Source of the DNA: a bacterium HR11
GTDB taxonomy: Bacteria > Acidobacteriota > HRBIN11
Direction of reading: 5' to 3'
Length of the DNA: 64,000 nt
NCBI GenBank assembly: GCA_002898535.1
Contig: BEHN01000007.1
Location: 4,946 to 68,945 of the forward strand
Below, piece after piece: positions 1,745 to 62,740 of this stretch. A model generated the notes under the pieces. It was not told the origin of the DNA. It did not search any database and saw only the letters and a program-made list of their open reading frames with translations. Both the position numbers and the translations under genes were made by a program. Within the stretch, counting starts at the first letter, position 1, and the number at the start of each line of letters is the position of its first letter.

Positions 1745-2036
1745 TTAACAGAGCCGTTCGTGCGGTGAGAAGTGAGATGGAGAGCGGAGAGGGCACCTCC
1801 ACGAAAGTACGATGCTTCAAGCATTCGGCCGATGGGCAGGTCGGCAGATAGGCAGGTGGGCCGATAGGCCGATGGGCAGGTCGGCAGGTCAGGCGACGGG
1901 CGTCTATCCCCGGCCCACCGGCCGACTGCCCATCTGCCCACCTGCCCATCTGCCGAATGCCTGAAACATCATGCTTTCGTGGAGATGCCCTTTCCGCTCT
2001 CCATCTCACTTCTCACCGCCCGAACGGCTCTGTTAC
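1745..2036. mobile_element. MITE-like palindromic element, family A copy 1 (terminal inverted repeats AACAGAGCCGTTCG...CGAACGGCTCTGTT, heptamer-repeat core)
   Basis: Inverted arms of about 100 bp (gtgcggtgagaagtgagatggagagcggagagggcacctccacgaaagtacgatgcttcaagcattcggc / gccgaatgcctgaaacatcatgctttcgtggagatgccctttccgctctccatctcacttctcaccgc) flank a GGCAGAT/GGCAGGT 7-mer core. The element is intergenic. Confidence 0.6.
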
Positions 2037-7271: not shown

Positions 7272-7311
7272 GACAGTCCTCCGGAATGCAGGATGCAAGA
7301 TGCAGGACGGC

Positions 7312-7577
7312 TATCAGAGCCGTTCGGTTGGTGAAAACCCGCATGGATTCGGCTTTTTCGACCCTTCGGGAGGGACGGTTTTCAAGCTTTGGCAGATAGG
7401 CAGTTCGGCAGATGGGCAGATGGTCCCAAAAGCCCTGGGGCTGATCCTTGCCCACCCGGCTTCTATCTGCCTATCTGCCGACCTGCCCATCGGCCGGATG
7501 CTTGAAAAATCGTGCTTCCCGGGCGGTGGGAAAGGTTGATTTGACGCCATTCTCACGGACCGAACCGCTCTGTTAAG
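7312..7577. mobile_element. MITE-like palindromic element, family A copy 2, in the cusB-cusA intergenic space
   Basis: TCAGAGCCGTTCGG at the left end and CCGAACCGCTCTGTTAA at the right end, with GGCAGAT/GGCAGTT/GGCAGATGG 7-mer core and CCCCAGGGCTTTTGGGACC motif. It is the reverse orientation of the copy at 25476..25734. Confidence 0.65.
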
Positions 7578-8924: not shown

Positions 8925-9071
8925 GAGTTCGGGAGTTCGGGAACCCGGGAATTCGGGGGTTCGGGAACTTCAAAGCCTGAGCGTCCCGTCGTCGGAGGCC
9001 CGCTCTGTCGAAGTGCCCGGTACCTGGTCCCCCGCCTCCCGAACTGCCGGACTCCCGAATTCCCGAATTGC
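8925..9071. repeat. palindromic heptamer-repeat element, family B (GGGAATTCGGG / CCCGAATTCCC type), in the cusC-cusB intergenic space
   Basis: Left arm GAGTTCGGGAGTTCGGGAACCCGGGAATTCGGGGGTTCGGGAAC, right arm CCTCCCGAACTGCCGGACTCCCGAATTCCCGAATTGCC. Confidence 0.6.
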
Positions 9072-10484: not shown

Positions 10485-10571
10485 TCTGAGAGGCGGATGG
10501 ATTCGGCTTTTCCGATTGGGCCACGGAAAAGGTTAATCCAACGCTATTCTCACGGGCCCAACCGCTCTGTG
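10485..10571. mobile_element. partial/degenerate copy of MITE family A (one arm)
   Basis: GGATGGATTCGGCTTTTCCGATTGGGCCACGGAAAAGG...CTATTCTCACGGGCCCAACCGCTCTGTGA resembles the family-A arm. Confidence 0.4.
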
Positions 10572-11230: not shown

Positions 11231-11357
11231 GGGTGACCGCCCATCCCTTGGGCCGTGATCGACCGGGGCCTAACCCTGGGGCGGACCCTCCGAACGCCAC
11301 CAGTCACGGGGGCGTCCCCCTGTCCCCGGGCGCCGCCGGTCCCGGCGGTGGCATCTA

Positions 11358-11808
11358 TTCGGCAGATGGGCAGTCGGCAGGTCGGCAGGTCGGGCGACGG
11401 GCGTCTATCCTCGGAACACCGGCCGTCATGCCGGTGCCTTCCGTTCGGTTCGGGAGAATGGCGTCGGGACGGCCTTTTCCATCGCCCGGCAAGCACGATG
11501 TTTCACAAAGGGACGGAGTGATGGACCATAGACCCCAGACCATAGACCGGCTTGGGCCCAGGGGTCTATGGTCCATGGTCTATGGTCTATGGTCTATGGT
11601 CCGTGGTCCATGGTCTGGGGTCGGATATCGAGGGTCCGATCCCGGTCCCGTCGGATGGATGAGACCGGTTCGATGGAAGGATGATCCCGACCGGCCCGTC
11701 GGCCCAAGACCGTGGCTCGTCCCTCCGTCCCTTCAAAACCGTCCTCCCCGAAGGGTCGAAAAGGTCGAATCCATGCGGGCTTTCACGAACCGAACGGCTT
11801 TAATAAGC
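11358..11808. mobile_element. composite repeat: family-A MITE core and arms with a family-C (GGTCTATGG) palindrome inserted
   Basis: GGCAGATGGGCAGTCGGCAGGTCGGCAGG core at 11358-11400, arm ...GGGAGAATGGCGTCGGGACGGCCTTTTCC..., GACCATAGACC/GGTCTATGGTC palindrome at 11522-11625, and arm ...CCGAAGGGTCGAAAAGGTCGAATCCATGCGGGCTTTCACGAACCGAACGGCTTTAAT at 11735-11808. Confidence 0.5.
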
Positions 11809-13429: not shown

Positions 13430-13676
13430 GAATTCGGGAGTTCGGCAATTCGGCCGTTCGGCCGGTGGGACCGGTCGACCCTTTTTATCCCAGCCCCGCT
13501 CGTTCGAGCGGGGTCCGGAGCTATCCGGCCGTTCGGGAATCCGGGGATTCGGGAATTCGGGAGTTCGGGAGCCCGGGCATGGGGTGGCCGGCCGGGGCGG
13601 GGATGAGGCCTGGAGGCCCGTGCCGGTGGAAAAGGCCGTCTCGACGCCATTCTCACGGGCCGAACGGCTCTGTTAC
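13430..13676. repeat. family B GAATTCGGG palindrome (13430-13572) fused to a family-A MITE arm (13630-13676)
   Basis: CATTTCGGGAATTCGGGAGTTCGGCAATTCGGCCGTTCGG ... CCGTTCGGGAATCCGGGGATTCGGGAATTCGGGAGTTCGGGAGC, then GACGCCATTCTCACGGGCCGAACGGCTCTGTTA. Confidence 0.55.
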
Positions 13677-14334: not shown

Positions 14335-14344
14335 ACGTTATTGG

Positions 14345-14559
14345 GCCGAGGGTCCCCAAAGCCCTGGGGCCGCGCCTGGCCCATCCAGGGCTCTATCGGC
14401 CTTGGGCCGACCGGCCCATCGGCCCAAGGCCGGGGCTCGTCCCTTCGTTACTCCGTCATTCCATCCCTTCGTCACACCGTCCCTTTGAAACATCGTGCTT
14501 CCCGGGTGTTGGGAAAGGTCGTCCCGACGCCATTCTCACGGGCCGAACGGCTGTGTTAA
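14345..14559. mobile_element. MITE family A, 5'-truncated copy (sub-variant with GGTCCCCAAAGCCCTGGGGCCGCGCCTGGCCC core); direct repeat of 16171..16453
   Basis: Near-identical over about 215 bp to the right-hand part of the copy at 16171..16453, in the same orientation. It ends GACGCCATTCTCACGGGCCGAACGGCTGTGTTAA. Confidence 0.6.
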
Positions 14560-14677: not shown

Positions 14678-16138
14678 TTACAGGGTCCTTTCGCATAATT
14701 GGGGCGGCAGGGGAGCTACATCCTTCCAATACCCGGAGATGGGCTGGAAGCGTTCTTGAGCGACGTCCGGAATCCGGTGAACTTCGACCTTCAAGTCCGT
14801 GATGTCCAGAGGCACGTCCTCCGTATAAACCGGAAGCTCAAATTCCGTCACGCACTGAGGCACAAACGCCTGGCCGGCCGGGTCGGTCTTCATAAGCAGA
14901 AGCCGTTCCCCCCGACCGACGACGCCAAGGATTCCAGCGATAAGGAATCCACCGTCCGAGGTCGGCTGAAGGGATACCAGGTTTACCTCATCCTTGAACC
15001 TATAAAATCGTTGGGCTGCCAAGTAACCCTGGGCGTCAAAGCGCCAAAATCCAGGAGAGGGCGGTTGGAGCGTACCGTCGGGATTCCGGAATTGGGCATT
15101 AAGCAACACGGCTACACCGCCGTCCGGTGTCCCCCGGAAGGTCAGCCTGTCGATGTCTCCATCTATCCAAAAGACCCGGGCCCACCGAATGGTACTCTTG
15201 CCATCCCATTTCAGCAGAAGAAGGACATTCCGGTAATCGGGGTAGTAACCAGATATGAACCCGCCTATTAGGAAGCTCCCGTCCCGCGTTGGCTGAATCC
15301 AGTGGGCCGACTCCGTGAGGTCTCCCCGGATAACCTTCGAATCCAGGACGCGTCCATGGTCATCAACCTGCAATGCCCAAATGTCTCCCCGACCGATACC
15401 GGTACACATCGTATGGCCGATCGCCTGATACCCGCCTTGGGGTGCTACAGTAAGGGTACGAAGGATGTTGCTCGCAAACCGGCAGTCCCGGAATTCTCCC
15501 ACAGGCTGATACACATGGGTCCATATCAAGAAACCCTCTCGGTCGAATCTCGATATCGTAGGACCTTGTCCTACGTACTTAGAGCTGGTATGGCCCAGGA
15601 CCATTAAGCGGTCCTGAGTCGGGGAAGGAACGACCCCAAAGGCCACCGTATTGGGTAAGTTATAAGAATATTGGCCATACAGCCCTAAGGGATAAAACGA
15701 CTTGAGCCAGGGCACCCCCTCGGGACTTCGGAACTGGGCGACCATTTGGTGAACCCTCGTATAGTGACGGACCGTTTGATTGTGGAGCCCAGCCAGCCAC
15801 AGAGTCCCTGGGACTGGTGAATAGGAATCTAATACCATGAAGTAATACGGAATTTGCTTCGCGTATATCACGTTCCCTTTAGTATCGACTCTTAAGATGA
15901 ACGTATGGTAAGGGGAATAGGTACCACCATCTCCCCCAAACACGCCGATGACGTCGTATCGGTCTGGATGCTCCGTCGGCGCAATGTACGGACCGATATA
16001 AGTCTGAGACCGAGCTTCCAATCCGTAGACCCCGACCCATGTCTGGAACCGGACGTCGGCCCCGGCCTTTATAGGGGCCAGACCCCCGACCAGGACCCAT
16101 GCCCCGAGCCATCGTAAGACTTTCCATGCCCGCCGCAT
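14678..16138 (-). CDS. secreted beta-propeller repeat protein (SBBP-like), atypically low GC, likely horizontally acquired
   Basis: 486 aa from MRRAWKVLRWLGAWVLVGGLAPIKAGA (signal peptide). Recurring blade-like motifs: TRDGSFLIGGF, TPDGGVAVLL, TSDGGFLIAGI. Local GC is about 50% versus about 67% for the flanks. The gene is flanked by direct MITE copies. Confidence 0.6.
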   Translation of the reverse strand: MRRAWKVLRWLGAWVLVGGLAPIKAGADVRFQTWVGVYGLEARSQTYIGPYIAPTEHPDRYDVIGVFGGDGGTYSPYHTFILRVDTKGNVIYAKQIPYYFMVLDSYSPVPGTLWLAGLHNQTVRHYTRVHQMVAQFRSPEGVPWLKSFYPLGLYGQYSYNLPNTVAFGVVPSPTQDRLMVLGHTSSKYVGQGPTISRFDREGFLIWTHVYQPVGEFRDCRFASNILRTLTVAPQGGYQAIGHTMCTGIGRGDIWALQVDDHGRVLDSKVIRGDLTESAHWIQPTRDGSFLIGGFISGYYPDYRNVLLLLKWDGKSTIRWARVFWIDGDIDRLTFRGTPDGGVAVLLNAQFRNPDGTLQPPSPGFWRFDAQGYLAAQRFYRFKDEVNLVSLQPTSDGGFLIAGILGVVGRGERLLLMKTDPAGQAFVPQCVTEFELPVYTEDVPLDITDLKVEVHRIPDVAQERFQPISGYWKDVAPLPPQLCERTL

Positions 16139-16170
16139 GGCTCTCTCCGCTTTGTGATAAGCTAATTTAG

Positions 16171-16453
16171 CAGAGCCGTTCGGCCCGTGCAAACCCGTAT
16201 GGATTCAGCCTTTCCGACCCTTCGGGGAGGACGATTTTTCAAGCGAAGGGCCGTTCGGGAGTTCGGCCGAGGGTCCCCAAAGCCCTGGGGCCGCGCCTGG
16301 CCCATCCAGGGCTCTATCGGCCTTGGGCCGACCGGCCCATCGGCCTAAGGCCGGGGCTCGTCCCTCCGTCCCTCCGTCCCTTTGAAACATCGGGCTTCCC
16401 GGGCGTTGGGAAAGGTCGTCCCGACGCCATTCTCACGGGCCGAACGGCTCTGT
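16171..16453. mobile_element. MITE family A, full copy (same sub-variant as 14345..14559)
   Basis: CAGAGCCGTTCGGCCCGTGCAAACCCGTATGGATTCAGCCTTTCCGACCCTTCGGGG... ...GGGAAAGGTCGTCCCGACGCCATTCTCACGGGCCGAACGGCTCTGTG. Confidence 0.65.
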
Positions 16454-16559
16454 GCAAGGATCAGATACTCTATTCGCTTGGCCCTTCGCTCTATGCCCGA
16501 TGCCCCTTCTATTTCCTTCCCCCCGCACTCATGATGGGTCAGACTACAGGGAGGTTGGC

Positions 16560-16600
16560 CTTGTAAGTAGCCTCCGGTATGATATTCCTGTGGAACTTAC
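16560..16600 (+). promoter_or_regulatory. putative sigma-70-like promoter for ppdK (TTGTAA ... TATGATAT)
   Basis: An AT-richer patch, TTGTAAGTAGCCTCCGGTATGATATTCC, lies 30-60 nt upstream of the ppdK start. This is visual only. Confidence 0.25.
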
Positions 16601-16623
16601 TCTCAAGCGACCAGGGGAGCGCC

Positions 16624-19347
16624 ATGGACCGGAAGGCCAAGTACGTCTACTTCTTCGGGGGCGGTCAGGCGGAGGGCTCGGGCCAGATGAAGGACCTCCT
16701 CGGCGGCAAGGGGGCGGGTCTGGCCGAGATGACGAGCCTGGGCCTCCCCGTCCCGCCCGGCTTCACCATCACGACGGAGGCCTGCCGCATCTTTTACGAA
16801 AACGGCGAGCAAGTCCCCGATTTCATCTGGCAGGAAGTCGAGGCCCACCTGCGCCGTCTCGAAGAGGTCAGCGGCAAGCGTTTCGGGGACCCCTCGAATC
16901 CCCTCCTCGTCTCCGTCCGGTCGGGCGCCAAGTTCTCGATGCCCGGCATGATGGACACGATCCTGAACCTGGGGATGAACGACGCCGTCGCCGAGGGCCT
17001 GGCCCGACTGACGGGCGACCGGCGCTTTGCGATGGACACCTACCGGCGGTTCCTTCAAATGTTCGGGAGCATCGCCCTGGGCATCCCGAAGGAAAGGTTC
17101 CATGAAGCCCTCGAAGACCTGAAGCGCCGCCGGGGCGTCCGCCAGGACGTCGAGCTGGCGGCCGACGACCTGGCCGAGCTCGTCGAGACCTTCAAGGCTA
17201 TCATCCAGCAGGCGACGGGGGCGCCCTTCCCGCAAGACCCTCGGGCCCAGCTTCGGGCGGCCGTCACGGCCGTCTTTCGGTCCTGGAATAATCCCCGGGC
17301 CCAGTACTACCGGAAAATCCACGGGATTCCCGACGACCTCGGGACGGCCTGTAGCGTCGTCATGATGGTGTACGGCAACATCGGGGAAGATTCGGGGACC
17401 GGCGTCGGCTTTACGCGCAATCCCTCGACGGGCGAGAAGGTCCTGTACGGAGAGTTCCTCCCCAATGCCCAGGGCGAGGACGTCGTCGCCGGGATCCGGA
17501 CGCCCCTGCCCCTGCAAGAATTGGAGCGGCGGCTTCCCGACGTGTACGCCCAGCTCCGGGACATCGCCGAAAAGCTGGAGCGCCACTACCGGGACGTCCA
17601 GGACTTCGAGTTCACCGTCGAACGGGGTCGGCTCTACATGCTTCAGACCCGGGTCGGCAAACGCACGGCCCAGGCGGCCGTCCGGATCGCCGTCGACATG
17701 GTCCGGGAGGGCCTCATCCGCCCGGAGGAGGCCGTCCTGCGGGTCGACCCGGCCCAGGTCGAACAGCTCCTGCATCCGGTCATCGACCCGGCCGTCCGGG
17801 CCCGGCACCGGCCCGTCGCCCAGGGCCTGCCGGCCTCGCCGGGGGCGGCGTCGGGCCGCGTCGTCTTCACGGCCGATGAGGCCGTCGCTCGGGCCGAAAA
17901 CGGCGAGGTCGTCCTCCTGGTCCGGGACGAGACGACGCCCGACGACATCCACGGGATGCACCGGGCCGTGGGCATCCTGACGAGCCGAGGGGGGATGACA
18001 AGCCACGCCGCCGTCGTCGCCCGCGGGATGGGCAAGCCCTGCGTCGTCGGCTGTGAGGCCCTCCAGATCGATTCCCGCCGACGGGAACTCCGGGTCGGGG
18101 ATACGGTCCTCCGGGAGGGCGACTGGCTGACCATCGACGGCTCGACGGGCGAGGTCTTCGTCGGCCAGCTCCCGACCGTCGAACCCCGCATCAGCGACGA
18201 GTTTGCGACCCTCCTCGAGTGGGCCGACCGGTTCCGTAAGCTGGGCGTCCGGGCCAACGCCGATACGCCCCGGGATGCCGAGATCGCCTACCGGTTTGGG
18301 GCGCAGGGCATCGGCCTGTGCCGGACCGAGCACATGTTCTTCGGCGAGGACCGTCTGCCCCATATGGTCCGCATGATCATGGCGGCCACGCCGGAGGAAC
18401 GTCGAGCGGCCTTGAACGAGCTCCTTCGCTTTCAGGTCGAGGACTTCGTCGGCATCTTCCGGGCCATGCAGGGCTACCCCGTCACGATCCGGCTCCTCGA
18501 CCCGCCTCTCCATGAGTTCCTGCCCAAGCGGGAGGAACTGATTCAGGAAATCGCCGAGCTGAAGTTCCGCCTGACACGGACCGACGACCTCAAGGCGATG
18601 GATGCCCTCTTGAAGGCACTTCACGAGAAAGAGCGACTCCTGGCCCGTGTGAACCAGCTCTACGAGTTCAACCCCATGTTGGGCCACCGGGGCGTGCGTC
18701 TGGTCATCACGTACCCCGAGATCGTCGAGATGCAGACGCGCGCCATCATCGAGGCGGCCATCCGGGTCAAGCGCCAGGGCCTGCGGGTGGCGCCCGAAAT
18801 CATGGTTCCCCTCGTCAGCACGGACACGGAGCTCGAGCAAGTCCGGCGGATCATCGAGACGACGGCCGAACGGGTCATGGAAGAGCAGGGCGTCCGGGTC
18901 CTCTATCAGGTCGGGACGATGATCGAGGTCCCTCGCGCCTGCCTCGTCGCCGACCGTATCGCCGCCTACGCCGAGTTCTTCTCCTTCGGGACCAACGACC
19001 TGACCCAGATGACCTTCGGCTTCTCTCGGGACGACATCAACAAGTTCCTGCCCGACTACTTGGAGAAAAAGCTCCTGCCGGCCGACCCGTTCCAGACGTT
19101 GGACACGGAGGGCGTCGGGGAGCTCATCCGGATCGCCATCCGCAAGGGACGCGCGGCCCGGGGGAACCTGAAGATCGGCATCTGCGGCGAGCACGGCGGG
19201 GACCCGGCGTCCATCACCTTCTGTCATGAGGTCGGCATGAACTACGTGAGCTGTTCGCCGTACCGGGTCCCGGTCGCCCGTCTGGCGGCGGCCCAGGCGG
19301 CCCTGCGGGCCCAGGCCGTGGCGGCCGAATACGCCGCCTCCGTGTGA
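16624..19347 (+). CDS. ppdK: pyruvate, phosphate dikinase
   Basis: 907 aa from MDRKAKYVYFFGGG... The N-terminal motifs are KDLLGGKGAGLAEM...GLPVPPGFTITTEAC. The phospho-His motif is GGMTSHAAVVARGMGKPCVVG. A PEP-utilising TIM barrel is at the C-terminus. The antisense ORF 16603..19227 is a shadow. Confidence 0.9.
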   Translation: MDRKAKYVYFFGGGQAEGSGQMKDLLGGKGAGLAEMTSLGLPVPPGFTITTEACRIFYENGEQVPDFIWQEVEAHLRRLEEVSGKRFGDPSNPLLVSVRSGAKFSMPGMMDTILNLGMNDAVAEGLARLTGDRRFAMDTYRRFLQMFGSIALGIPKERFHEALEDLKRRRGVRQDVELAADDLAELVETFKAIIQQATGAPFPQDPRAQLRAAVTAVFRSWNNPRAQYYRKIHGIPDDLGTACSVVMMVYGNIGEDSGTGVGFTRNPSTGEKVLYGEFLPNAQGEDVVAGIRTPLPLQELERRLPDVYAQLRDIAEKLERHYRDVQDFEFTVERGRLYMLQTRVGKRTAQAAVRIAVDMVREGLIRPEEAVLRVDPAQVEQLLHPVIDPAVRARHRPVAQGLPASPGAASGRVVFTADEAVARAENGEVVLLVRDETTPDDIHGMHRAVGILTSRGGMTSHAAVVARGMGKPCVVGCEALQIDSRRRELRVGDTVLREGDWLTIDGSTGEVFVGQLPTVEPRISDEFATLLEWADRFRKLGVRANADTPRDAEIAYRFGAQGIGLCRTEHMFFGEDRLPHMVRMIMAATPEERRAALNELLRFQVEDFVGIFRAMQGYPVTIRLLDPPLHEFLPKREELIQEIAELKFRLTRTDDLKAMDALLKALHEKERLLARVNQLYEFNPMLGHRGVRLVITYPEIVEMQTRAIIEAAIRVKRQGLRVAPEIMVPLVSTDTELEQVRRIIETTAERVMEEQGVRVLYQVGTMIEVPRACLVADRIAAYAEFFSFGTNDLTQMTFGFSRDDINKFLPDYLEKKLLPADPFQTLDTEGVGELIRIAIRKGRAARGNLKIGICGEHGGDPASITFCHEVGMNYVSCSPYRVPVARLAAAQAALRAQAVAAEYAASV

Positions 19348-19353
19348 AAGGTT

Positions 19354-19500
19354 AACAGAGCCGTTCGGTTCATGAGAATGGCGTCAGAACAATCTTTCCC
19401 ATCCCCCGGAAAGCACGATGTTTCAAGCATTCGGCAGATGGGCAGGTCGGCAGATGGGCAGATGGGCAGGTCGGCAGATGGGCAGGTTGAGAGACTGGTA
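19354..19500. mobile_element. MITE family A arm plus heptamer core (no right arm)
   Basis: AACAGAGCCGTTCGGTTCATGAGAATGGCGTCAGAACAATCTTTCCCATCCCCCGGAAAGCACGATGTTTCAAGCATTCGGCAGATGGGCAGGTCGGCAGATGGGCAGATGGGCAGGTCGGCAGATGGGCAGG. Confidence 0.55.
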
Positions 19501-19665
19501 CCTATCCTCGGAACACCGGCCGTCATGCCGGTGTCTTCCGTGGGGCGATGGCCCCTCACCCTGTCCCTTTCCCCGGAGGGGAGAGGGGACAGGATGGCCC
19601 ACGCCTCGCCTCCTGCCCGGAGCGAACGGCCAATGGCCAGCAAGATGCTGGCGCTCCCAGCGTAA

Positions 19666-20547: not shown

Positions 20548-21036
20548 GCCGGCCCGCGAGCATCCCATCCGGACGGAGTCCGGCCGCACCCTGCTCTATC
20601 GCCCCTGCGGAGCCCGTTGCTCTTCGATCAGCGCCATCAGGAAGGACAGGTCCAGGTGGGTCCGCAGGACCTCGGCGCGGGGGCCACGTGCCTTCCGGCT
20701 AACCGGAAGGTCTTGGATGCGGCGGTCCGAGCCTTATACGCCGGCGCTCGCCCGTGGCGAGACGAAGTGCCCCGCCCATAATGAGGGGGTGGGGATGGGG
20801 CCGGCATCGGGAGGTACCCCCCTTGATGCCGGCCCTAAGGAGCTTTGTTGGGATGTATGGCTCCCGTTCCCCGGCCTCTCTCCTCAAGGGAGAGGCGTCC
20901 GGCGGCTTTCTCCCTGGCCCGAGGGGGAGAAGACCCGGGGCCTTGAAGGGCCCCGGGTGTGAAGGTTCTGTGCCCTGAAGGGCAAAAGGTCCAAAATAAA
21001 GACCATCCCATATGGCCTATTCCATGGAGGTCCGTC

Positions 21037-21318
21037 ATGACGAAACGGATGGGAAGCCGGGTCATCGGCCTGGTCCTGGCGGGGTGGGTCCTGGGCTTGG
21101 CCGTGGCCCGGGCGGATGAGGTCGCCAAGGTCCAGTCTGCCTGTGCCGCCCAGCTCCTGGAGGAACTCCAGGGTTCGTCCTCAAAGTGTAGCCTGTTCCC
21201 GAGCCTGCTGTTGACCCAGGGGCGCTACGCCCTGGTCGATATCCATGTCCGATGCGTCGCTCCCGGTTCGAGGGGGCCCGAGGTCTCCTATCAGAGCCGT
21301 TCGGGAGGTGAGAAGTGA
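21037..21318 (+). CDS. small secreted hypothetical protein
   Basis: Start at MTKRMGSRVIGLVLAGWVLGLAVARA (signal peptide), with RBS GGAGG 7 nt upstream. The C-terminal about 10 codons read into the MITE at 21292. Confidence 0.35.
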   Translation: MTKRMGSRVIGLVLAGWVLGLAVARADEVAKVQSACAAQLLEELQGSSSKCSLFPSLLLTQGRYALVDIHVRCVAPGSRGPEVSYQSRSGGEK

Positions 21319-21376
21319 GATGGAGGTGCCCTTTCCGCTCTCCATCTCACTTCTCACCTCCCGAACGGCTTTGTTA
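21292..21376. mobile_element. short palindromic variant of MITE family A
   Basis: CAGAGCCGTTCGGGAGGTGAGAAGTGAGATGGAGGTGCCCTTTCCGCTCTCCATCTCACTTCTCACCTCCCGAACGGCTTTGTTA is a near-perfect hairpin related to the arms of copy 1. Confidence 0.55.
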
Positions 21377-21460
21377 AAATTAGATGCGGGGGTCAGGAAT
21401 CGGGCTTTTCCCAGACCCCCGACACCCAGGACCCAAGACCGAGGTTCAGCGAGGTCGGCT

Positions 21461-24436
21461 ATGGCCGACAAGCCGGTGTTTCGTCCCATCAGTGATTACA
21501 TCTGGGAGGCGGAGCCCGTCGGCGATATGCGGGTCCCGGCCCGGGTCTTTGCCTCCAAGAAGCTCTGGGACCTCATCCAGCGGGACAACAGCCTGAAGCA
21601 GTTGTGCAACGTGGCGACGCTCCCGGGGATCGTGGGCTATGCGCTGGCGATGCCGGACATCCACGAGGGCTACGGCTTTCCCATCGGGGGCGTGGCGGCC
21701 TTTCGGGTCGAAGACGGAATTATATCACCTGGAGGCGTTGGGTATGACGTGAATTGCCTGTACGGTGATGCCAAAGTATTGCACATTCACGGATACACTC
21801 GGGCCATCGCCGATATGGAGGCCGACTGGCCTCAAGGGCGGGTCCGTTGTCAGGACTTCCGGGGGGGCCATGGTACGGATACACCCGTCATCGGCTTTTT
21901 ACGCCGTCGCCCTTACGGGACCGTTTATCGGGTGACGACGGACACGGGCCATGAAACTGTCGCGACGGCCGACCATCCCTTCTGGACGCCGGCGGGGATG
22001 GTCGAGCTCCGGCGGCTCCAGGTCGGGGATCGGGTGGCCGTCTACCCCTTTGAGGGCGTGCCTTACGAGGAGCCGGCGGCTCGGGTGTTGGTGGACGAGT
22101 CCCATATCGTGGCCGTCCTGGAACGCTATGGGAAGGCCGGGCGCGGCCGGGCCGTCACCCAGGTCTTGCGCCGACTTCGGTCGCGGGGGCTTCTGCCCTT
22201 GCGGGCGAACGCGCCGCAGGTCCCTTACCTGCTGAAGCTCTTGGGGTACGTGCTGGGAGACGGCACGGTCTACTTCACAGGCGGCACGGGCAAGGGCGTC
22301 GTGTGGTTTTATGGCCGACCGGAGGACCTGGAGGCTATCCGGGCCGACGTGGCGGCCCTCGGCTTCACGCCCTCTCGGATTTACAGTCGTCCCCGTCGTC
22401 ACCGTGTCACGACGGCCTATCGGGACTATGAATTCGAGAGCCAGGAACACGCCGTAAAGGTCGTAAGCAGTAGCTTCGCCGCCTTGCTGGTCGCTCTGGG
22501 CGCCCCGGTCGGCAACAAGGCGGTACAGGACTATGGGGTCCCCGAGTGGCTCCTGGAGGCACCTCGCTGGCATCAACGCCTCTTTTTAGCCGCCCTTTTT
22601 GGGGCCGAGCTTTCAGCCCCCCGGGCTTTGGACCGACACAATCACAATTTCATGACTCCTGTACTCTCGGTGAGCAAGCGAGAATCCCACGTCGATAGTG
22701 GCCGTCGTTTCCTCGAGGATATCGGGCGCATGTTAGCCGGTTTTGGCGTTCAGGTCCTGAAGATCTCTCAGCGGCGAGAGCAGACGCATGCGGACGGGAG
22801 CCGCTCGGTCCGTCTCCGACTCGTTCTCTCCGCCCGGCTCGACAGTCTGCGCAACCTCTGGGGCCGCATTGGATTCGAGTACAATCAAAAGCGGCAGGCC
22901 CTGGCGAGCGTGGCTGTCGGGTATTTACGGTACAAAGCGCATGTCTTGCGCCTCCGGGAGGAGGCGGCTTCGGCGGCCGTCGCCCTGCGGGCCCAGGCTC
23001 TGCCGCCGACGGCCATCTTCGACCGGCTCGTCGGCTTGTATGTAAATCGGCGCTTTTTAGAGCGGTCGCTGTATGAAGGTCGCACGAGCCCTCGGGTCGG
23101 CGCCGCCTTCATGACCTTCGAGGAGTACCGCCGTTGGGCGACCGAGGGTCTGGGGACCAGCGGGATGGTCTGGAGCCGGATCATTCGTCTGGAGCCGATT
23201 CCCTTCGCCGGGGACGTTTACGACCTGACCGTCGCCCATCCAGACCATAACTTCATCGCCGACGGATTCGTCGTCTCCAACTGCGGCGTCCGGGTCGTCG
23301 TCACGAACCTGACCCGGGAGGACCTGGAGGGGAAGGTCGAGCGGCTGGCCGACGTCCTGTTCGAGACGGTCCCGACGGGCGTCGGCGCCCACGGCGCCAT
23401 TCGCAAGCTCAGTCGGGAGGAGCTCCGGCAGGTCGTCGTCCGGGGCGCCCGGTGGGCCGTCGAGGAGGGCTTCGGGACCGAGGCGGACCTGGCCCACACC
23501 GAGGAAAACGGCTGTCTCGCCGGGGCGGACCCCGACAAGATCTCCCACCGGGCCTACGAGCGTGGGGCCGACCAGCTCGGGACCCTGGGGTCGGGCAACC
23601 ACTTTGCCGAGGTCGACGTCATCGACGAGATTTACGACGAGGCGGCCGCGCAGCGGTTGGGCCTCTTTCGGGGCCAGGTCGTCTATCAGATCCACTGCGG
23701 CTCTCGGGGCTTCGGGCACCAGATTTGCGACGATTACCTGGGCGTCATGTACCGGGCCGTCCAGAAGTACGGCATTCGCCTGCCGGACCGTCAGCTCGTG
23801 TGTGCGCCCCTTTCGTCGCCCGAGGCCCAGGACTACCTGGGGGCGATGCGGGGGGCGGCCAACTTTGCGTGGTGTAACCGGCAGATCATCATGGCCCTGA
23901 TGGCGAAGGCTTTTCAAAAGGCCCTGGGCGTCTCGCCCCGGGACCTGGGCGTCCGGCTCCTGTACGACGTGTGTCATAATATCGCCAAAATCGAGGAGCA
24001 CGTCATCGACGGTCAACGCGTGAAGGTCTGCGTCCACCGGAAGGGGGCCACGCGGGCCTTCCCGCCGGGTCGGCCCGAGATACCGGCCGACTATCGGGAC
24101 ATCGGTCAGCCGGTCCTGATCCCGGGCGACATGGGCCGGTACTCGTACATCCTCTTGGGGAAGCCGAAGGCGATGGAGCTGACCTTTGGGAGCTCCTGTC
24201 ATGGGGCGGGTCGGGTCATGAGCCGGGCCCAGGCGAAGCGTCTGGCGGCGCATCGGGACATCGAGCGGGAGCTCCGGGAGATGGGGATCATCGTCCGGGG
24301 CGAGAGTCGAGCGACCATCGACGAGGAGATGTCGGAGGCTTACAAGGACGTCAGCGAGGTCGTCGAGGTCGTCCATCGGACGGGCATCAGCACGAAGTTC
24401 GTACGTCTCCGGCCCGTCTGCGTCATCAAGGGATAG
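21461..24436 (+). CDS. rtcB: RNA-splicing ligase RtcB, interrupted by an in-frame intein
   Basis: Start at MADKPVFRPISDYIW... (M73 of ORF 21245..24436). The N-extein ends ...SPGGVGYDVN and the C-extein resumes CGVRVVVTNL... Downstream RtcB motifs are LGSGNHFAEVDV, HCGSRGFGHQ and SSCHGAGR. Total length is 991 aa against about 480 aa for intein-less RtcB. Confidence 0.85.
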   Translation: MADKPVFRPISDYIWEAEPVGDMRVPARVFASKKLWDLIQRDNSLKQLCNVATLPGIVGYALAMPDIHEGYGFPIGGVAAFRVEDGIISPGGVGYDVNCLYGDAKVLHIHGYTRAIADMEADWPQGRVRCQDFRGGHGTDTPVIGFLRRRPYGTVYRVTTDTGHETVATADHPFWTPAGMVELRRLQVGDRVAVYPFEGVPYEEPAARVLVDESHIVAVLERYGKAGRGRAVTQVLRRLRSRGLLPLRANAPQVPYLLKLLGYVLGDGTVYFTGGTGKGVVWFYGRPEDLEAIRADVAALGFTPSRIYSRPRRHRVTTAYRDYEFESQEHAVKVVSSSFAALLVALGAPVGNKAVQDYGVPEWLLEAPRWHQRLFLAALFGAELSAPRALDRHNHNFMTPVLSVSKRESHVDSGRRFLEDIGRMLAGFGVQVLKISQRREQTHADGSRSVRLRLVLSARLDSLRNLWGRIGFEYNQKRQALASVAVGYLRYKAHVLRLREEAASAAVALRAQALPPTAIFDRLVGLYVNRRFLERSLYEGRTSPRVGAAFMTFEEYRRWATEGLGTSGMVWSRIIRLEPIPFAGDVYDLTVAHPDHNFIADGFVVSNCGVRVVVTNLTREDLEGKVERLADVLFETVPTGVGAHGAIRKLSREELRQVVVRGARWAVEEGFGTEADLAHTEENGCLAGADPDKISHRAYERGADQLGTLGSGNHFAEVDVIDEIYDEAAAQRLGLFRGQVVYQIHCGSRGFGHQICDDYLGVMYRAVQKYGIRLPDRQLVCAPLSSPEAQDYLGAMRGAANFAWCNRQIIMALMAKAFQKALGVSPRDLGVRLLYDVCHNIAKIEEHVIDGQRVKVCVHRKGATRAFPPGRPEIPADYRDIGQPVLIPGDMGRYSYILLGKPKAMELTFGSSCHGAGRVMSRAQAKRLAAHRDIERELREMGIIVRGESRATIDEEMSEAYKDVSEVVEVVHRTGISTKFVRLRPVCVIKG
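21755..23281 (+). other. intein (509 aa) with LAGLIDADG homing-endonuclease domain inside rtcB
   Basis: The insert begins with Cys (CLYGDAKVLHIHGYT...) and ends ...HPDHNFIADGFVVSN immediately before the Cys of CGVRVV. LAGLIDADG-like motifs are LLGYVLGDGTVYF and FLAALFGAELS. The penultimate residue is Ser rather than the usual His. Confidence 0.75.
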
Positions 24437-25370: not shown

Positions 25371-25450
25371 AGACCACAGACCATAGACCACAGACCATAG
25401 ACCGGCTTGGGCCCAGGGGTCTATGGTCCATGGTCTGTGGTCTATGGTCG
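25371..25450. repeat. family C palindrome (GACCACAGACCATAGACC ... GGTCTATGGTCCATGGTCTGTGGTCTATGGTC)
   Basis: Inverted 7-mer arrays around the GGCTTGGGCCCAGGG centre. Confidence 0.6.
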
Positions 25451-25475
25451 GACTTATGAGACTGGTTCTCTGATA

Positions 25476-25734
25476 CCAGAGCCGTTCGGTTCGTGAGAAT
25501 GGCGTCGGCACAACCTTTCCCAACGCCCGGGAAGCACGGTTTTTCAAGCATCCGGCCGATGGGCAGGTCGGCAGATAGGCAGATAGAAGCCGGGTGGGCA
25601 AGGATCAGCCCCAGGGCTTTTGGGACCATCTGCCCATCTGCCGAACTGCCTATCTGCCAAAGCTTGAAAACCGTCCTTCCCGAAGGGTCGGTAAAGCCGA
25701 ATCCATGCGAGTTTTCACCAACCGAACGGCTCTG
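25476..25734. mobile_element. MITE family A, full copy (reverse orientation of 7312..7577)
   Basis: CCAGAGCCGTTCGGTTCGTGAGAATGGCGTCGGCACAACCTTTCCCAACGCCCGGGAAGCACGGTTTTTCAAGC ... GCTTGAAAACCGTCCTTCCCGAAGGGTCGGTAAAGCCGAATCCATGCGAGTTTTCACCAACCGAACGGCTCTGA. A short family B motif (CCGAATTCCCGAATCG, 25741-25762) and a family C arm (25813-25842) follow. Confidence 0.65.
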
Positions 25735-25850
25735 ATAACCGGACTGCCGAATTCCCGAATCGTCCAAAAGATTTGGTTGACAAAGCACAAATCCCAAAGC
25801 AAGTTTATAATTTATGGTCTGTAGTCCGTGGTCTGGGGTCTTCCAGATCC

Positions 25851-33741: not shown

Positions 33742-33811
33742 GGATGCCTCCGCCGGTCCGGCGGTTCAACGGCCCGGTTGCCGAGGGACCGAACGGCCCT
33801 TATTATACTAC

Positions 33812-34160
33812 GGGAATTCGGCCATTCGGGAGTTCGGCAGTTCGGCCATAAGGCAGATGGGCAGAGCAGGGTGGGCTGACAGCAGCTGACGTGATTGTGG
33901 CTTTTTGGGTCATTGGATGGGATTTTATGGCACACGAGTAGCGAATGGCGAGTGGCGAGTAGCGAGTAGCGAATGGCGAGTAGCGAGTAGCGAATGGCGA
34001 GGACGGGGCGGTCCCCGGGGAGGCGTCCTGTGGCTCATAGGTCATATTAGCTCATGGGTCATGGCTCATGGTCCCATGAGCTATGAGCCAATAGGGGCCA
34101 TCGGCTTGCCGCCCGTCCACCGGCCTATCGGCCGAATGGCCGAACTCCCGAATTCCCGGC
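33812..34160. repeat. compound palindromic heptamer-repeat region: family B arms (33812-33850, 34130-34160) enclosing family D (GCGAGTAGCGAATGGCGAG, 33936-34000) and family E (CTCATGGGTCATGGCTCATGG, 34032-34092) arrays
   Basis: Successive 7-bp-period tandem arrays (GGGAATTCGG, GAGTAGC/GAATGGC, CATGAGC) are arranged as nested inverted repeats between mtnA and rpmH. Confidence 0.6.
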
Positions 34161-34173
34161 TACTCGATGAGCC

Positions 34174-36689: not shown

Positions 36690-36720
36690 GGCTTGGGCAG
36701 AGGGCAGGTAGCAGAGCCCT

Positions 36721-36917
36721 TGGGTTTGTGAAAGTGGCGTCGGGTCGGCTTTTTCCATGGCCCGAAAGAGACCCAGGAGGAATGGGGAGTGGGGAATGAG
36801 GAATGAGGAATGGGGAATGAGGAATGGGGAATGAGGGGGGCACATATGAGGTCATGGCTCATAGCCCATGAGCCATCAGCTATCAGCCATGAGCCGATCG
36901 GGGCCAAGAGCTATGAC
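36721..36917. repeat. family F (GGAATGGGGAATGAGGAATGAGG, 36770-36835) and family E (CATGAGCC, 36846-36917) heptamer arrays
   Basis: GGAATGGGGAGTGGGGAATGAGGAATGAGGAATGGGGAATGAGGAATGGGGAATGAG, then GGTCATGGCTCATAGCCCATGAGCCATCAGCTATCAGCCATGAGCC. Confidence 0.55.
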
Positions 36918-36920
36918 CTA

Positions 36921-37182
36921 ACAGAGCCGTTCGATTCGTGAGAATGGCGTCGGAACAACCTTTCCCAACGCCCGGGAAGCACGGTTTTTCAAGCATCCGG
37001 CAGATGGGCAGGTCGGCAGATAGGCAGATAGAAGCCGGGTGGGCAAGGATCAGCCCCAGGGCTTTTGGGACCATCTGCCCATCTGCCGAACTGCCTATCT
37101 GCCAAAGCTTGAAAAACCGTCCTCTCCGAAGGGTCGAAAAAGCCGAATCCATGCGGGTTTTCACGAACCGAACGGTTCTGTT
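36921..37182. mobile_element. MITE family A, full copy
   Basis: AACAGAGCCGTTCGATTCGTGAGAATGGCGTCGGAACAACCTTTCCCAACGCCCGGGAAGCACGGTTTTTCAAGC ... CCGAATCCATGCGGGTTTTCACGAACCGAACGGTTCTGTTA. It abuts the stop of the downstream minus-strand gene. Confidence 0.65.
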
Positions 37183-40058: not shown

Positions 40059-40089
40059 GGGACCTTCGCCTCATAGCAAGGGGTGGGTC

Positions 40090-40300
40090 GCGAATAGCGA
40101 ACGGCGAATGGCGAGTAGCGAATGGCGAGGGCGCGTCGGACAAGGGCCGTTTGCTATCGCTCGCTCGACCGCCGATGGGACCCCCGCGGGTGGCCCCTAC
40201 GACAGCCGGTTCCCCCGCTTCTGCCGAATAGAGCGAGGGTGCTCCAGATGTCCGACCTGGTCGCCACTCGCCATTCGCTACTCGCCATTCGCCACTCGAT
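40090..40300. repeat. family D palindrome (GCGAATAGCGAACGGCGAATGGCGAGTAGCGAATGGCGAG ... CTCGCCATTCGCTACTCGCCATTCGCCACTCG)
   Basis: Inverted 7-mer arrays at 40090-40130 and 40261-40300 flank a 130-bp core. The right arm overlaps the 3' end of the ABC ATPase ORF. Confidence 0.55.
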
Positions 40301-44383: not shown

Positions 44384-45100
44384 ATGGCGGCCACGCTGGA
44401 AGAACGCGTCGCTTACCTGGAGGGTCGAGTCGATGAACAATCGCGCCTGAGTGGAGAACTGCGGGACATGGTGTTCCATTTAGACCAGAAAGTCGACCGG
44501 TTCCGGGAGGAGCTGATAGCGGAGATTCGGGCCGTCGACCAGAAGGTGGACCGGTTCCGAGAAGAGCTGACGGCGGAGATTCGGGCCGTCGACCAGAAAG
44601 TCGACCGGTACCGTGAAGAACTGACGGCGGAGATCCGGGTCGTCGACCAGAAGGTCGACCGATTCCGGGAGGAGCTGATAGCGGAGATTCGGGCTGTCGA
44701 CCAGAAGGTGGACCGGTTCCGGGAAGAGCTGATGGCGGAGATTCGGGCCGTCGACCAGAAAGTCGACCGGTACCGTGAAGAACTGATGGCGGAGATCCGG
44801 GTCGTCGACCAGAAGGTCGACCGATTTCGGGAGGAGCTGATGGCGCAGATCCAGGCCGTGGACCAGCGGCTGTCGGCCGAGATTCGGGCCGTCGACCAAA
44901 AGGTCGACCGGTATCGGGAAGAGTTGTTAGCTCAGATGCAAGCCCTCGACCAGCGGCTGTCGGCCCGGATCCAGAGCTTAGAGCAAAAGGTTCGGGACTT
45001 GGACCAGCGGATGACCCGGTACTTCATATGGATTGTAGGCCTTCAGTTTGCGACGTTGGCGACCATCATCAGTCTACTTTTGAGCATATTGCTTCGGTAA
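44384..45100 (+). CDS. tail-anchored coiled-coil protein built from about 8 tandem 18-aa repeats (DQKVDRFREELIAEIRAV), inserted between nuoL and nuoM
   Basis: 238 aa. RBS GGAGGT lies 6 nt upstream. The N-terminal part is MAATLEERVAYLEGRVDEQSRL. Seven or eight near-identical 18-residue units with F/Y, I/T/M, A/V variation make up the middle. A single C-terminal TM helix, YFIWIVGLQFATLATIISLLLSILL, ends the protein. Confidence 0.6.
   Translation: MAATLEERVAYLEGRVDEQSRLSGELRDMVFHLDQKVDRFREELIAEIRAVDQKVDRFREELTAEIRAVDQKVDRYREELTAEIRVVDQKVDRFREELIAEIRAVDQKVDRFREELMAEIRAVDQKVDRYREELMAEIRVVDQKVDRFREELMAQIQAVDQRLSAEIRAVDQKVDRYREELLAQMQALDQRLSARIQSLEQKVRDLDQRMTRYFIWIVGLQFATLATIISLLLSILLR
44480..44940 (+). 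repeat. intragenic 54-bp tandem repeat (about 8.5 copies) with a 162-bp higher-order period
   Basis: GACCAGAA(A/G)GT(C/G)GACCGGT(T/A)CCG(G/T)GA(G/A)GA(G/A)CTGA(T/C)(A/G)GCGGAGAT(T/C)CGGG(C/T)CGTC units. Units 1-3 correspond one-to-one with units 4-6, with 1-3 substitutions each. Confidence 0.7.
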
Positions 45101-48718: not shown

Positions 48719-48872
48719 AGCTCATGGGTCATGGCTCATAGTTCATGGGCCCATGACCCATGAGCCACGAGCCATAAGCCGATCTCACCGGGCCCTTCTT
48801 GACATAGCCGTTCGGTTCGTGGAAACCCGGATGGATTCAGCCTTTCCGACCCTTCGGGGCGGACGGTGTGAC
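48719..48872. repeat. family E CATGAGCC palindrome (48719-48782) followed by a single family-A MITE arm (48805-48872)
   Basis: CTCATGGGTCATGGCTCATAGTTCATGGGCCCATGACCCATGAGCCACGAGCCATAAGCC, then GCCGTTCGGTTCGTGGAAACCCGGATGGATTCAGCCTTTCCGACCCTTCGGGGCGGACGGTGTG. Confidence 0.55.
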
Positions 48873-49075
48873 GAGCGACGGTCTTGGGCCGGCGGGCCGG
48901 TCGGGATCATCCTTCCATCGTCACTCCGTCACTTCATCACTCCTTCACGCGGATGACCGACCCCCACAAGTAATGCTTTGTCAGCTTGTATTTTGAGGGA
49001 ATCCAGACGTTCGGGAAGCCGGGAAATGCGTCGTGAAATAGCACGCCGGCCCCGGGTTCCTGGGGCCTCCTCTTG

Positions 49076-55181: not shown

Positions 55182-55365
55182 ATTCGGCCGTCCGGGAATT
55201 CGGGCGTCCGGTAATCCGGCCGTTCAGGAATTCAGCCGTCTGGCATAAAGGGTCGGGGGAGGTCACCCGGACCTACCGTCCAAGCCGGTGTATCCGGCCA
55301 CGGCCGGATTCCTGAACGCCCGAACTCCCGGACTGCCGGACGGCCGAGCTCCCGAATTCCCGAAT
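55182..55365. repeat. family B GAATTCGGG palindrome inside the che-like cluster (between AAA gene and cheA)
   Basis: CCGGGAATTCGGGCGTCCGGTAATCCGGCCGTTCAGGAATTCAGCCG ... GGATTCCTGAACGCCCGAACTCCCGGACTGCCGGACGGCCGAGCTCCCGAATTCCCGAATAGCCGG. Confidence 0.6.
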
Positions 55366-61330: not shown

Positions 61331-61465
61331 CAATGAGGAATGAGGATTGAGGAATGTGGAATGGAATTCCCCATTCCTCACCCCTCATTCCTCATTCCTC
61401 ATTCCCCATTCCCCATTCCTCACTCCTCACTCCTCACTCCCCATTCCTCATTCCCCATTCCTCCC
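61331..61465. repeat. family F palindrome (AATGAGGAATGAGGATTGAGGAATGTGGAATGGAATTCCCCATTCCTCA...CCATTCCTCATTCCCCATTCC)
   Basis: 7-bp periodic inverted arrays lie between the dCMP deaminase stop and the argF start. Confidence 0.6.
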
Positions 61466-62469: not shown

Positions 62470-62740
62470 CATTCAGGAATCCGGGAATCCGGCCGTTCGG
62501 GAGTTCGGGAATTGGGTAAGTGGGATGCGGATGTCACTGTCCCATAAGTCCATCCTGGATGCGCGGTATACGTCCCCTTCAGACCTTGCTCCCACGGGTC
62601 CCATCCCGATGAAGGTCGTGGGAACGGAGGACCGACCCGCGACGGACGTCGCCCCCGGGACGCCCGTCGGACGGTGGACATCCCTCGGCCGACCTTCCGA
62701 ATCCCCGGATGCCCGGATTCCCGAATCCCCTATTCCGAGA
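62470..62740. repeat. family B palindrome arms (62471-62515, 62697-62740) around a 180-bp core
   Basis: TTCAGGAATCCGGGAATCCGGCCGTTCGGGAGTTCGGGAATTGGG ... CCGAATCCCCGGATGCCCGGATTCCCGAATCCCC. Confidence 0.55.

Follow-up and report, generated by a model that had tools for sequence, protein, structure and literature searches.

The window analyzed here comprises 64,000 nucleotides of the 116.6-kb contig BEHN01000007.1 (positions 4,946 to 68,945) from bacterium HR11 (HRbin11), a hot-spring metagenome-assembled genome (MAG) whose nearest relatives are labelled Acidobacteriota. It is chromosomal DNA of 65% GC with housekeeping genes aboard, and a Pfam-supported gene map places in it cusCBA-type efflux genes, trigger factor, ClpP, PPDK, RtcB with an intein, a DnaC-like gene, MutL, riboflavin genes, YidC, and nuo and che genes. 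Between these genes lies a family of dispersed, inverted-repeat elements with CAGAGCC arms, exemplified by the focal copy at 16171-16452, which an earlier note made from the sequence alone had likened to transposable elements of the miniature inverted-repeat type (MITEs). We found no account of repeats in HR11 or related Acidobacteriota in the literature, no tRNAs in the window, and no match to Rfam covariance models at gathering thresholds over its whole length.

A dispersed family of inverted-repeat elements

The 13-nt terminal sequence CAGAGCCGTTCGG occurs 16 times in the window at ≤1 mismatch, against 0.23 expected, and none of 100 shuffles reached 16; the count is 19 when two mismatches are allowed and a downstream GTGARAA box is required. 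The family occupies 13 loci, all of them intergenic on the gene map: five full-length elements (258–284 bp between termini), two mini elements, and six solo, half or decayed composite copies (Table 1). The earlier note had listed about 12 copies of 260–320 bp; BLAST recovered every locus on its list, but only five are full length, and one further locus (36712-36790) had been missed. Together the copies amount to ~2.5 kb by coordinate sum, or ~4% of the window; judged against a crude gene map, they make up roughly one fifth of its non-coding DNA. The density is one locus per ~5 kb, or one complete element per ~11–13 kb, and it is uneven, with 12 of the 13 loci within the first 37 kb and a single copy in the second half.

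Sharing of short motifs alone was the condition under which the earlier note would have abandoned the family, but copies align over their whole length: 7302-7575 and 25474-25747 are 94% identical over 274 nt, and 25477-25734 matches 36922-37180 at 95.8%. The gene map and the survey of copies also agree with the description of the elements as intergenic, present in both orientations and sometimes chimeric. Coding capacity is limited to open reading frames (ORFs) of ≤72 aa overlapping the focal region. With a small, non-coding size, terminal inverted repeats (TIRs) and dispersed copies that are present or absent among relatives, the elements are MITE-like.

Anatomy and folding

We compared 74 termini from the window and a related MAG, and aligned 45 arms. 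Read from the outside inward, an arm consists of TA, one variable base, the 13-nt CAGAGCCGTTCGG, three variable bases, GTGARAA, ~40 nt that set the arm type, and then the second conserved box, ACGrTTTTTCAAG, about 60 nt deeper inside. Across the aligned arms, conservation reaches at least 90% in the terminal 13 nt and in the TTTTTCAAG box. Three arm types (A, B and C) were found in place of the two proposed earlier. Arms A and B are homologous but diverged over all ~75 nt, and 14 of 24 complete elements have the canonical arrangement of a B arm at one end and an A arm at the other, the pattern that an insertion sequence (IS) would leave at its left and right ends after internal deletion. Type C elements are near-perfect palindromes (1749-2032 and the 82-bp element at 21292-21373). 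Elements measure 69–391 bp between termini, and the mini forms of 69–110 bp, which retain both tips, are deletion derivatives of the kind seen in other MITE families.

Tandem arrays lie directly inside TTTCAAG. The core unit has a period of 8 (GGCAGATG/GGCAGGTC) and not 7, as had been read before; across the copies compared, 7–8-bp units of different types occur (GGCAGATG, CGTGACGN, GGGATAC, GGTGYTG or GGGACGGA). Arrays are mostly mirrored across the two halves of an element, and sometimes the two halves of one copy carry different units. The conserved core motif reported in the earlier note, GGTCCCMAAAGCCCTGGGG, is present in five copies against zero expected. As single-stranded DNA the focal element folds at -87.7 kcal/mol (z -6.3 versus shuffles), while 25476..25735 and 1748..2033 have z values of -9.95 and -20.5. 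Within the arm, hairpin pairing and covariation were no better than in shuffles, with one pair changed on both sides, and we rejected the arm hairpin as a selected structure for want of covariation.

Distribution and age of the copies

A 23-nt terminal pattern identified 27 loci in 185,579 species genomes. The majority (23 of 27) are contigs belonging to a single MAG, Acidobacteriota JZ-1.bins.94, which stems from another hot spring and is ~94% identical to the window where syntenic. Of the other four, one is a 361-bp C-type element in a MAG of Blastocatellia (L025), one comes from a MAG of Thermoflexus (L022), and two are chance matches. A metagenome scan returned a single match (L029), the same sequence as the Thermoflexus locus. 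Relatives 83–93% identical (L030-L038, L053-L055) carry no copies in ~175 kb, of which ~90 kb is non-redundant, since L031-L038 cover a single ~20-kb region in eight overlapping versions. Apart from the stray Blastocatellia and Thermoflexus copies, the family is confined to HR11 and the JZ-1 MAG. The Thermoflexus copy (L022 413-520 / L029 3500-3610) is a half element made of TA, a B-like arm and GGCAGATA octamers, 77–79% identical, and it sits 12 nt upstream of a secreted-protein gene on a 57% GC contig binned as Thermoflexus (Chloroflexota); it represents either cross-phylum transfer among hot-spring bacteria or misbinning.

Orthologous spacers in relatives lack the elements, and the DnaC/MutL, PPDK/next-gene and yidC/SpoU spacers measure 0–110 nt in distant relatives versus about 350–520 nt in the window (Table 1). 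Three copies, at 7315, 25477 and 36922, share 95–96% mutual identity, and JZ-1-type DNA is without the element at both young-copy sites that can be examined (L049, L052). All three are younger than the HR11/JZ-1 split. Copies within JZ-1 have 82–89% mutual identity. Upstream of trigger factor, both genomes carry an element beside the same CCGTCATGCCGGTG motif; the element is of intact A..B form in JZ-1 (L042 780-1035) and is decayed and invaded by a heptamer palindrome in HR11. This shared element, taken with the young HR11 copies, indicates that the family was active both before and after the two genomes separated.

The window is a MAG contig, and repeats in a short-read MAG may be collapsed or chimerically joined so that copy positions are unreliable. 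An independent assembly of the same sample (L028), 100% identical to 16424-19381, breaks at both ends inside the repeats that flank PPDK, and the 21292 mini element lies at a synteny breakpoint. However, an independent MAG from another hot spring, and many separate contigs, carry this family with its architecture unchanged, and its copies are 4–40% divergent with unique flanks. At most some joins could be artefactual and the repeats themselves cannot be, making an assembly artefact an extremely unlikely source of the family. The breakpoint at the mini element (20683-21431) holds against all relatives, whose DNA upstream of RtcB contains UbiA or the 3' end of a tRNA; it may reflect a repeat-mediated rearrangement or a chimeric MAG join.

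TA flanks and a transposition model

TA occupies positions -3/-2 outside CAGAG at 47 of the 74 termini, against a background of 1.9%; by position, T is found at -3 in 81% and A at -2 in 74%. The flanks are mirror-symmetric (TA-N[...]N-TA). A direct 3-bp duplication is thereby excluded, and the remaining target is palindromic, TA (or TTAA). We therefore rejected a TAA/TTA duplication of the IS5/Harbinger type, the flanks being mirror images with no direct repeat. Homology with a MITE-less JZ-1-like allele begins at the flanking TA (25736-25737 and 21375-21376), which assigns the TA to the target, and two abutting elements in L005 (3947/3952) share a single cTAa.

We favor, with a probability of about 0.6, a model in which the family consists of non-autonomous TIR transposons (MITEs) that insert at TA in the manner of IS630/Tc1-mariner elements. 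TA duplication is the signature of IS630/Tc1-mariner transposition, with biochemical evidence from ISY100 (PMC2170065); Correia, ERIC and RUP elements likewise have TA flanks (PMC2229807). Under this model, a transposase encoded elsewhere would bind the element ends, excise or copy the element, and insert it at a TA dinucleotide that would be duplicated in the process. Inserted copies would later degenerate, with loss of an arm, and would recombine both among themselves and with neighboring 7–8-bp tandem arrays, giving rise to the mosaics and half elements observed. Mariner ends likewise begin with N-CAGG right after the TA, a resemblance that we treat as a lead and not as a test.

Several observations weigh against this model. 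No clean filled/empty pair emerged from five spacers compared with JZ-1-type DNA and nine loci compared with distant relatives: at every compared site at least one flank, or the whole spacer, has also been replaced, even between 94%-identical genomes, and TA duplication is therefore a step that we infer. At both sites where homology begins at the TA, the opposite flank is unalignable (left-flank similarity p ≈ 0.23). Variation in the single base that separates TA from CAGAG (A in 53%) is unusual for a transposon tip, and 36% of termini are without TA, the right end of the focal copy included. Arrays differ between copies, and at times between the halves of one copy, indicating that recombination, and not transposition alone, supplies much of the diversity. 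Finally, neither a transposase nor an ORF-bearing copy with these termini was found in the window, the 27 genome loci, plasmids or viral contigs. Pfam searches of ~40 window ORFs returned housekeeping genes only and no parent IS. Among the 27 genome loci, no plus/minus terminus pair encloses a transposase-like segment, and the sole kilobase-scale pair (L002, ~3.1 kb) encloses ClpP and trigger factor. BLAST against plasmids gave no match, and viral contigs gave zero matches to the 23-nt pattern and nine matches of ≤21 nt, attributable to chance, to a looser pattern. The non-repetitive interior of the 361-bp L025 element, tried as a transposase remnant, has no Pfam match at E ≤ 1.

The earlier note had named an IS200/IS605 TnpA or a REP-associated tyrosine transposase (RAYT) as examples of a cognate transposase to check for. 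Such REPIN-like doublets or IS200/IS605-type elements, moved as single strands by a Y1 (HUH) transposase, resemble the HR11 family in their abundance and intergenic location, in forming inverted doublets that fold into long hairpins, and in the size of the 69–110-bp mini forms. The fit is nevertheless poor. The HR11 unit is an arm of ~75 nt that is not itself a 20–40-nt palindrome, its tip lacks the GTAG or CGTC tag described for those repeats (PMC3733652), and no Y1_Tnp gene is present among the window ORFs. Furthermore, IS200/IS605 elements have no TIRs, carry direct subterminal hairpins, and insert without duplication by a fixed, one-sided 4–5-nt target, whereas the HR11 elements have true inverted ends and symmetric TA flanks. 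These features point to a DDE enzyme of the IS630/Tc1-mariner type and render Y1 mobilization very unlikely.

Transcriptional signals and gene starts

A consensus scan found no outward sigma-70-like promoter in the elements, and an outward TTGAAA...TATCC promoter that had been suggested for the arms was not recovered; the only promoter-like matches score a weak 9/12, point into the element, and draw on the flanking TTAA for part of the -35. In each of the two arms, an inward hairpin leads into a T-run, a signal that the terminator scan detected repeatedly (Table 1). Read-through RNA would form long hairpins, and with one such hairpin and T-run in each arm an element could stop transcription entering from either side. 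Such terminator or insulator action is a plausible side effect and not an established function.

These signals also bear on whether the elements are host-maintained, BIME-like mosaics, spread by homologous or microhomology recombination and gene conversion without a dedicated transposase, and kept as bidirectional terminators, insulators or mRNA-stability hairpins. Consistent with such an origin, elements lie at the ends of genes, in one case between two convergent ones; arrays may differ between the two halves of an element; the half copy at 14341 meets its flank inside an octamer array; and whole spacers have been replaced between 94%-identical genomes. However, the arm-hairpin stem is without covariation, and terminator-like sites are no more frequent in total than in shuffles (15 vs 11.1 ± 3.5; 13 vs 10.8 ± 3.3). 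Two copies sit in an operon or a formerly coupled gene pair (cusB-cusA, dnaC-mutL), where a terminator would be harmful. Recombination alone also leaves the TA flanks, the conserved 13-nt tips, and the near-identical copies at unrelated loci unexplained, and we regard host maintenance as rather unlikely compared with transposition at TA.

As had been suspected, the repeats generate spurious ORFs: translating the arm and the array yields the recurring peptides FTNRTAL and SIRQMGRSADG. When the longest ORF is taken, PPDK, MutL, RtcB, ClpP, YidC and SpoU all start within repeat DNA (Table 1). For PPDK, MutL, YidC and SpoU, deposited proteins that match exactly confirm true starts 15–28 codons downstream; for RtcB and ClpP, starts ~60–110 codons downstream are suggested by alignment with relatives, exact look-ups having come back empty. 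Just upstream of mutL, 25779-25813 contains TTGACA...TATAAT, whose 23-nt spacer exceeds the length usual in a standard promoter, and the hexamers lie in repeat-derived DNA common to JZ-1. The more distant relatives have mutL in translational coupling with dnaC.

Array-built spacers around the family

Many window spacers consist of two inverted arrays of imperfect 7–8-bp units without CAGAGCC arms, built from TTCGGGAA, GGTCTAT, AATGRGG, GCGARTR and other units (Table 1). The type and presence of these units differ among genomes 84–94% identical, including at the same sites, and L049 has a concentric, nested palindrome of 317 nt where the window spacer is 8 nt. Two young MITE copies (7312-7576 and the site matching 25474-25738) lie at a TA in the middle of an array palindrome. 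For 4 of 25 elements, complementarity between the two flanks exceeds the 95th percentile of mismatched controls, a weak enrichment (~p = 0.03, binomial estimate).

One interpretation, unlikely in our judgment, is that the CAGAGCC-armed elements are only the part most easily seen of a clade-specific system in which palindromes of 7–8-bp arrays are nested, new modules would prefer the loop TA at a palindrome center, and arrays of new unit types would arise and be replaced faster than 6% genome divergence, producing onion-like spacers. If true, a structure-targeting or slippage-synthesis mechanism beyond TIR transposition would remodel nearly every spacer in these thermophiles. We consider distinctly improbable the stronger proposal that the arms are one module of a clade-wide process that writes, nests and replaces array palindromes, for example by hairpin-apex insertion or hairpin-primed slippage synthesis at high temperature. 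The stand-alone inverted array pairs, the exchange of units at the same sites, the L049 palindrome, the copies at palindrome centers and the complementary flanks all accord with it. On the other hand, the flank enrichment is weak, TA is rare at 65% GC and naturally gathers in loops, and G-rich heptamer arrays in inverted pairs have been described before in Xanthomonas (PMC4692102) and need no link to a MITE.

Neighborhoods of individual copies

The gene at 14678-16138 (minus strand) encodes a predicted secreted repeat protein of 486 aa, with a low local GC of 0.577. It is bracketed by direct MITE right halves (14341-14556 and 16262-16453; 86.6% identical), and the JZ-1 MAG lacks it between ClpP and PPDK. 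We considered this ORF as a candidate transposase and rejected it, as the product is a secreted repeat protein with no Pfam match and forms a singleton cluster in a collection of 15 billion proteins. A small GC-rich hairpin module, ACACCGGC-N6-GCCGGTGT, occurs at 11425-11446 and 19513-19534 in the window, at ~4030 in L002 and at ~7620 in L049; found beside or inside elements and in the spacers of relatives, it looks like a separate REP-like repeat.

Two further observations concern the genes of the window. RtcB (21431-24436) contains an intein (Intein_splicing domain); an intein-less RtcB of 482 aa is found in L031-L033, L035, L037 and L053, and intein-bearing forms of 986–992 aa in L034, L036 and L049. 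A 54-bp (18-codon) tandem repeat of ~7 copies, 85–94% identical, lies at 44483-44866 within ORF 44384-45100, whose product is coiled-coil-like and whose position is between nuoL- and nuoM-type genes.

Table 1. Copies of the family in the window and associated features.
Feature	Position	Strand	Description
Full-length subfamily-C element	1748..2033	.	termini 1749-2032; C arms at both ends; GGCAGATG octamer arrays; near-perfect palindrome, 110-nt arms 91% complementary; TA both sides (1746-1747, 2034-2035)
Full-length B..A element, young copy	7314..7573	+	termini 7315-7572; fills cusB-cusA spacer inside efflux operon; TA both sides; mid (GGGATGC)n/(GCATCCC)n small palindrome; 95.3% identical to 25477-25734
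Truncated mini element	10485..10571	-	first ~48 nt of A arm joined to partial B arm; terminus 10569
Decayed composite	11357..11806	.	octamer array 11359-11393; A arm without CAGAG tip 11441-11505; inserted (AGACCAY)n heptamer palindrome 11530-11625; B arm end 11802 (TAAAG)
Solo A arm	13617..13675	-	terminus 13672, TA-flanked; between trigger factor and ClpP
Half element	14341..14559	+	core and A arm, terminus 14555, TA flank; 86.6% identical to 16262-16453; junction with ClpP downstream spacer inside octamer array
Focal full-length element	16170..16453	+	B arm 16171-16245; A arm 16378-16452; core of GGTCCCCAAAGCCCTGGGG hairpin, then (CGTCCCTC)n array; TA on left (16168-16169), right flank GC rather than TA
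Half element	19352..19500	+	A arm (terminus 19356, TTAA before) and (GGCAGATG)6.6 array; starts 4 nt past PPDK stop codon
Mini element, 82 bp (21292-21373)	21291..21374	.	two abutted C arms; TA both sides
Full-length A..B element, young copy	25476..25735	-	termini 25477-25734; DnaC-MutL spacer; TA both sides (25474-25475, 25736-25737)
Degenerate A-like arm	36712..36790	+	CAGAGCCCTTGGG...; continues into (GGAATGG)n heptamer array; absent from earlier list
Full-length A..B element, young copy	36921..37181	-	termini 36922-37180; between convergent yidC and SpoU-type methylase gene; right flanking TA and terminal base form methylase stop codon TAA
B arm and partial core	48803..48941	+	terminus CATAG at 48803; sole copy in last 27 kb of window
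Terminator-scan matches in arms	16209-16230, 7534-7515, 25515-25534, 36960-36979, 37142-37121		
Armless array spacers, window	8925-9067, 25371-25449, 33811-34165, 40073-40298, 55182-55364, 61332-61463, 62474-62730		
Armless array spacers, relatives	L030 1-715; L031 13890-14140; L049 7507-7824; L052 3015-3093		
PPDK start, longest ORF/true	16579/16624		
MutL start, longest ORF/true	25773/25851		
RtcB start, longest ORF/probable	21245/21431		
ClpP start, longest ORF/probable	13396/~13720		
YidC start, longest ORF/true	34875/34959		
SpoU start, longest ORF/true	37969/37918		
DnaC/MutL spacer			83-93% relatives: abutting TAGATG in L031-L038, 28 nt in L053, 108 nt with heptamer palindrome only in L055; JZ-1-like L049: 270 nt, element absent; window: about 480 nt
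PPDK/next gene spacer			L030 (92.7% relative): 4 nt; JZ-1-like: about 100 nt; window: 350 nt
yidC/SpoU spacer			83-93% relatives: 53-72 nt, element absent; window: about 490 nt
cusB/cusA spacer			JZ-1 MAG L052: 79 nt, element absent; window: 296 nt

Relation to known repeat families

The closest parallels are the Correia/NEMIS elements of Neisseria, which are likewise abundant, intergenic, TA-flanked palindromic MITEs with subtypes defined by internal segments, occur inside operons, give transcripts that form long hairpins, and have no identified mobilizing transposase (PMC2229807, PMC10969869). The two families have no sequence similarity: Correia elements are 100–155 bp long with TIRs of ~24–26 bp, an IHF site and proven outward promoters, whereas the HR11 elements have arms of ~75 nt, a length of ~260 bp, tandem-array cores and no detected outward promoter. 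A further parallel is RUP of Streptococcus pneumoniae with IS630-Spn1, together with ISY100 (IS630/Tc1-mariner family): a TA-inserting, TA-flanked MITE for which mobilization in trans by a TA-duplicating DDE transposase is proposed (PMC2229807, PMC2170065). The link of RUP to IS630 is TIR identity with a resident IS630 member, whereas no parent IS was found for the HR11 family in the sequences searched, and its place in the IS630-derived class is putative.

Other families share the internal organization. BrickBuilt of Porphyromonas gingivalis is a strictly intergenic MITE with a variable tandem-repeat interior (PMC4596501, PMC10969869), but its minisatellite unit is longer and of a single type, in contrast to the unrelated 7–8-bp units, mostly in inverted pairs, that are swapped between HR11 copies. 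The GGGAATC heptamer pairs of Xanthomonas and the STRR repeats of Nostoc/Calothrix are intergenic 7-mers, often in convergent stem-loop arrays that keep their type but vary in length between relatives (PMC4692102), much like the array modules within and next to the HR11 elements; these are without TIRs and are not claimed to be mobile, whereas arrays of the HR11 family are enclosed by CAGAGCC arms. The BIMEs of E. coli are also modular, mosaic intergenic repeats with interchangeable motifs, but they are built from 35–40-nt REP palindromes linked to RAYT, and the HR11 elements have TA-flanked TIRs with neither REP units nor a GTAG/CGTC tag. The HR11 repeats are a previously undescribed family of TA-flanked palindromic MITEs in one hot-spring lineage, a known kind of selfish DNA and not a new system, whose modules are heavily reshuffled by recombination.

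A load far above that of typical repeat families, as the earlier note had it, is an overstatement: in this single window it is of the same order as that of ERIC in Photorhabdus (711 copies) or of Correia in Neisseria (PMC10969869). Its claim that the family is a major shaper of the genome is plausible for the spacers, since several repeat classes, this family among them, jointly rebuild them.

Implications

For annotation, the family accounts for many spurious ORFs and displaced apparent gene starts. For assembly, short-read contigs break exactly at copies, as in L028, and at least one synteny breakpoint is marked by a copy. The family also records a dated MITE burst in an uncultured thermophile, present in HR11 and JZ-1 and absent from relatives ≤93% identical, with copies driven into formerly zero-length coupled junctions (dnaC/mutL, PPDK/next gene) and into an efflux operon. 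The stray Thermoflexus half copy hints at transfer between hot-spring phyla. The understanding of how MITEs work is unchanged by these results, and what makes them of broader interest is the turnover of tandem-array palindromes across the clade.

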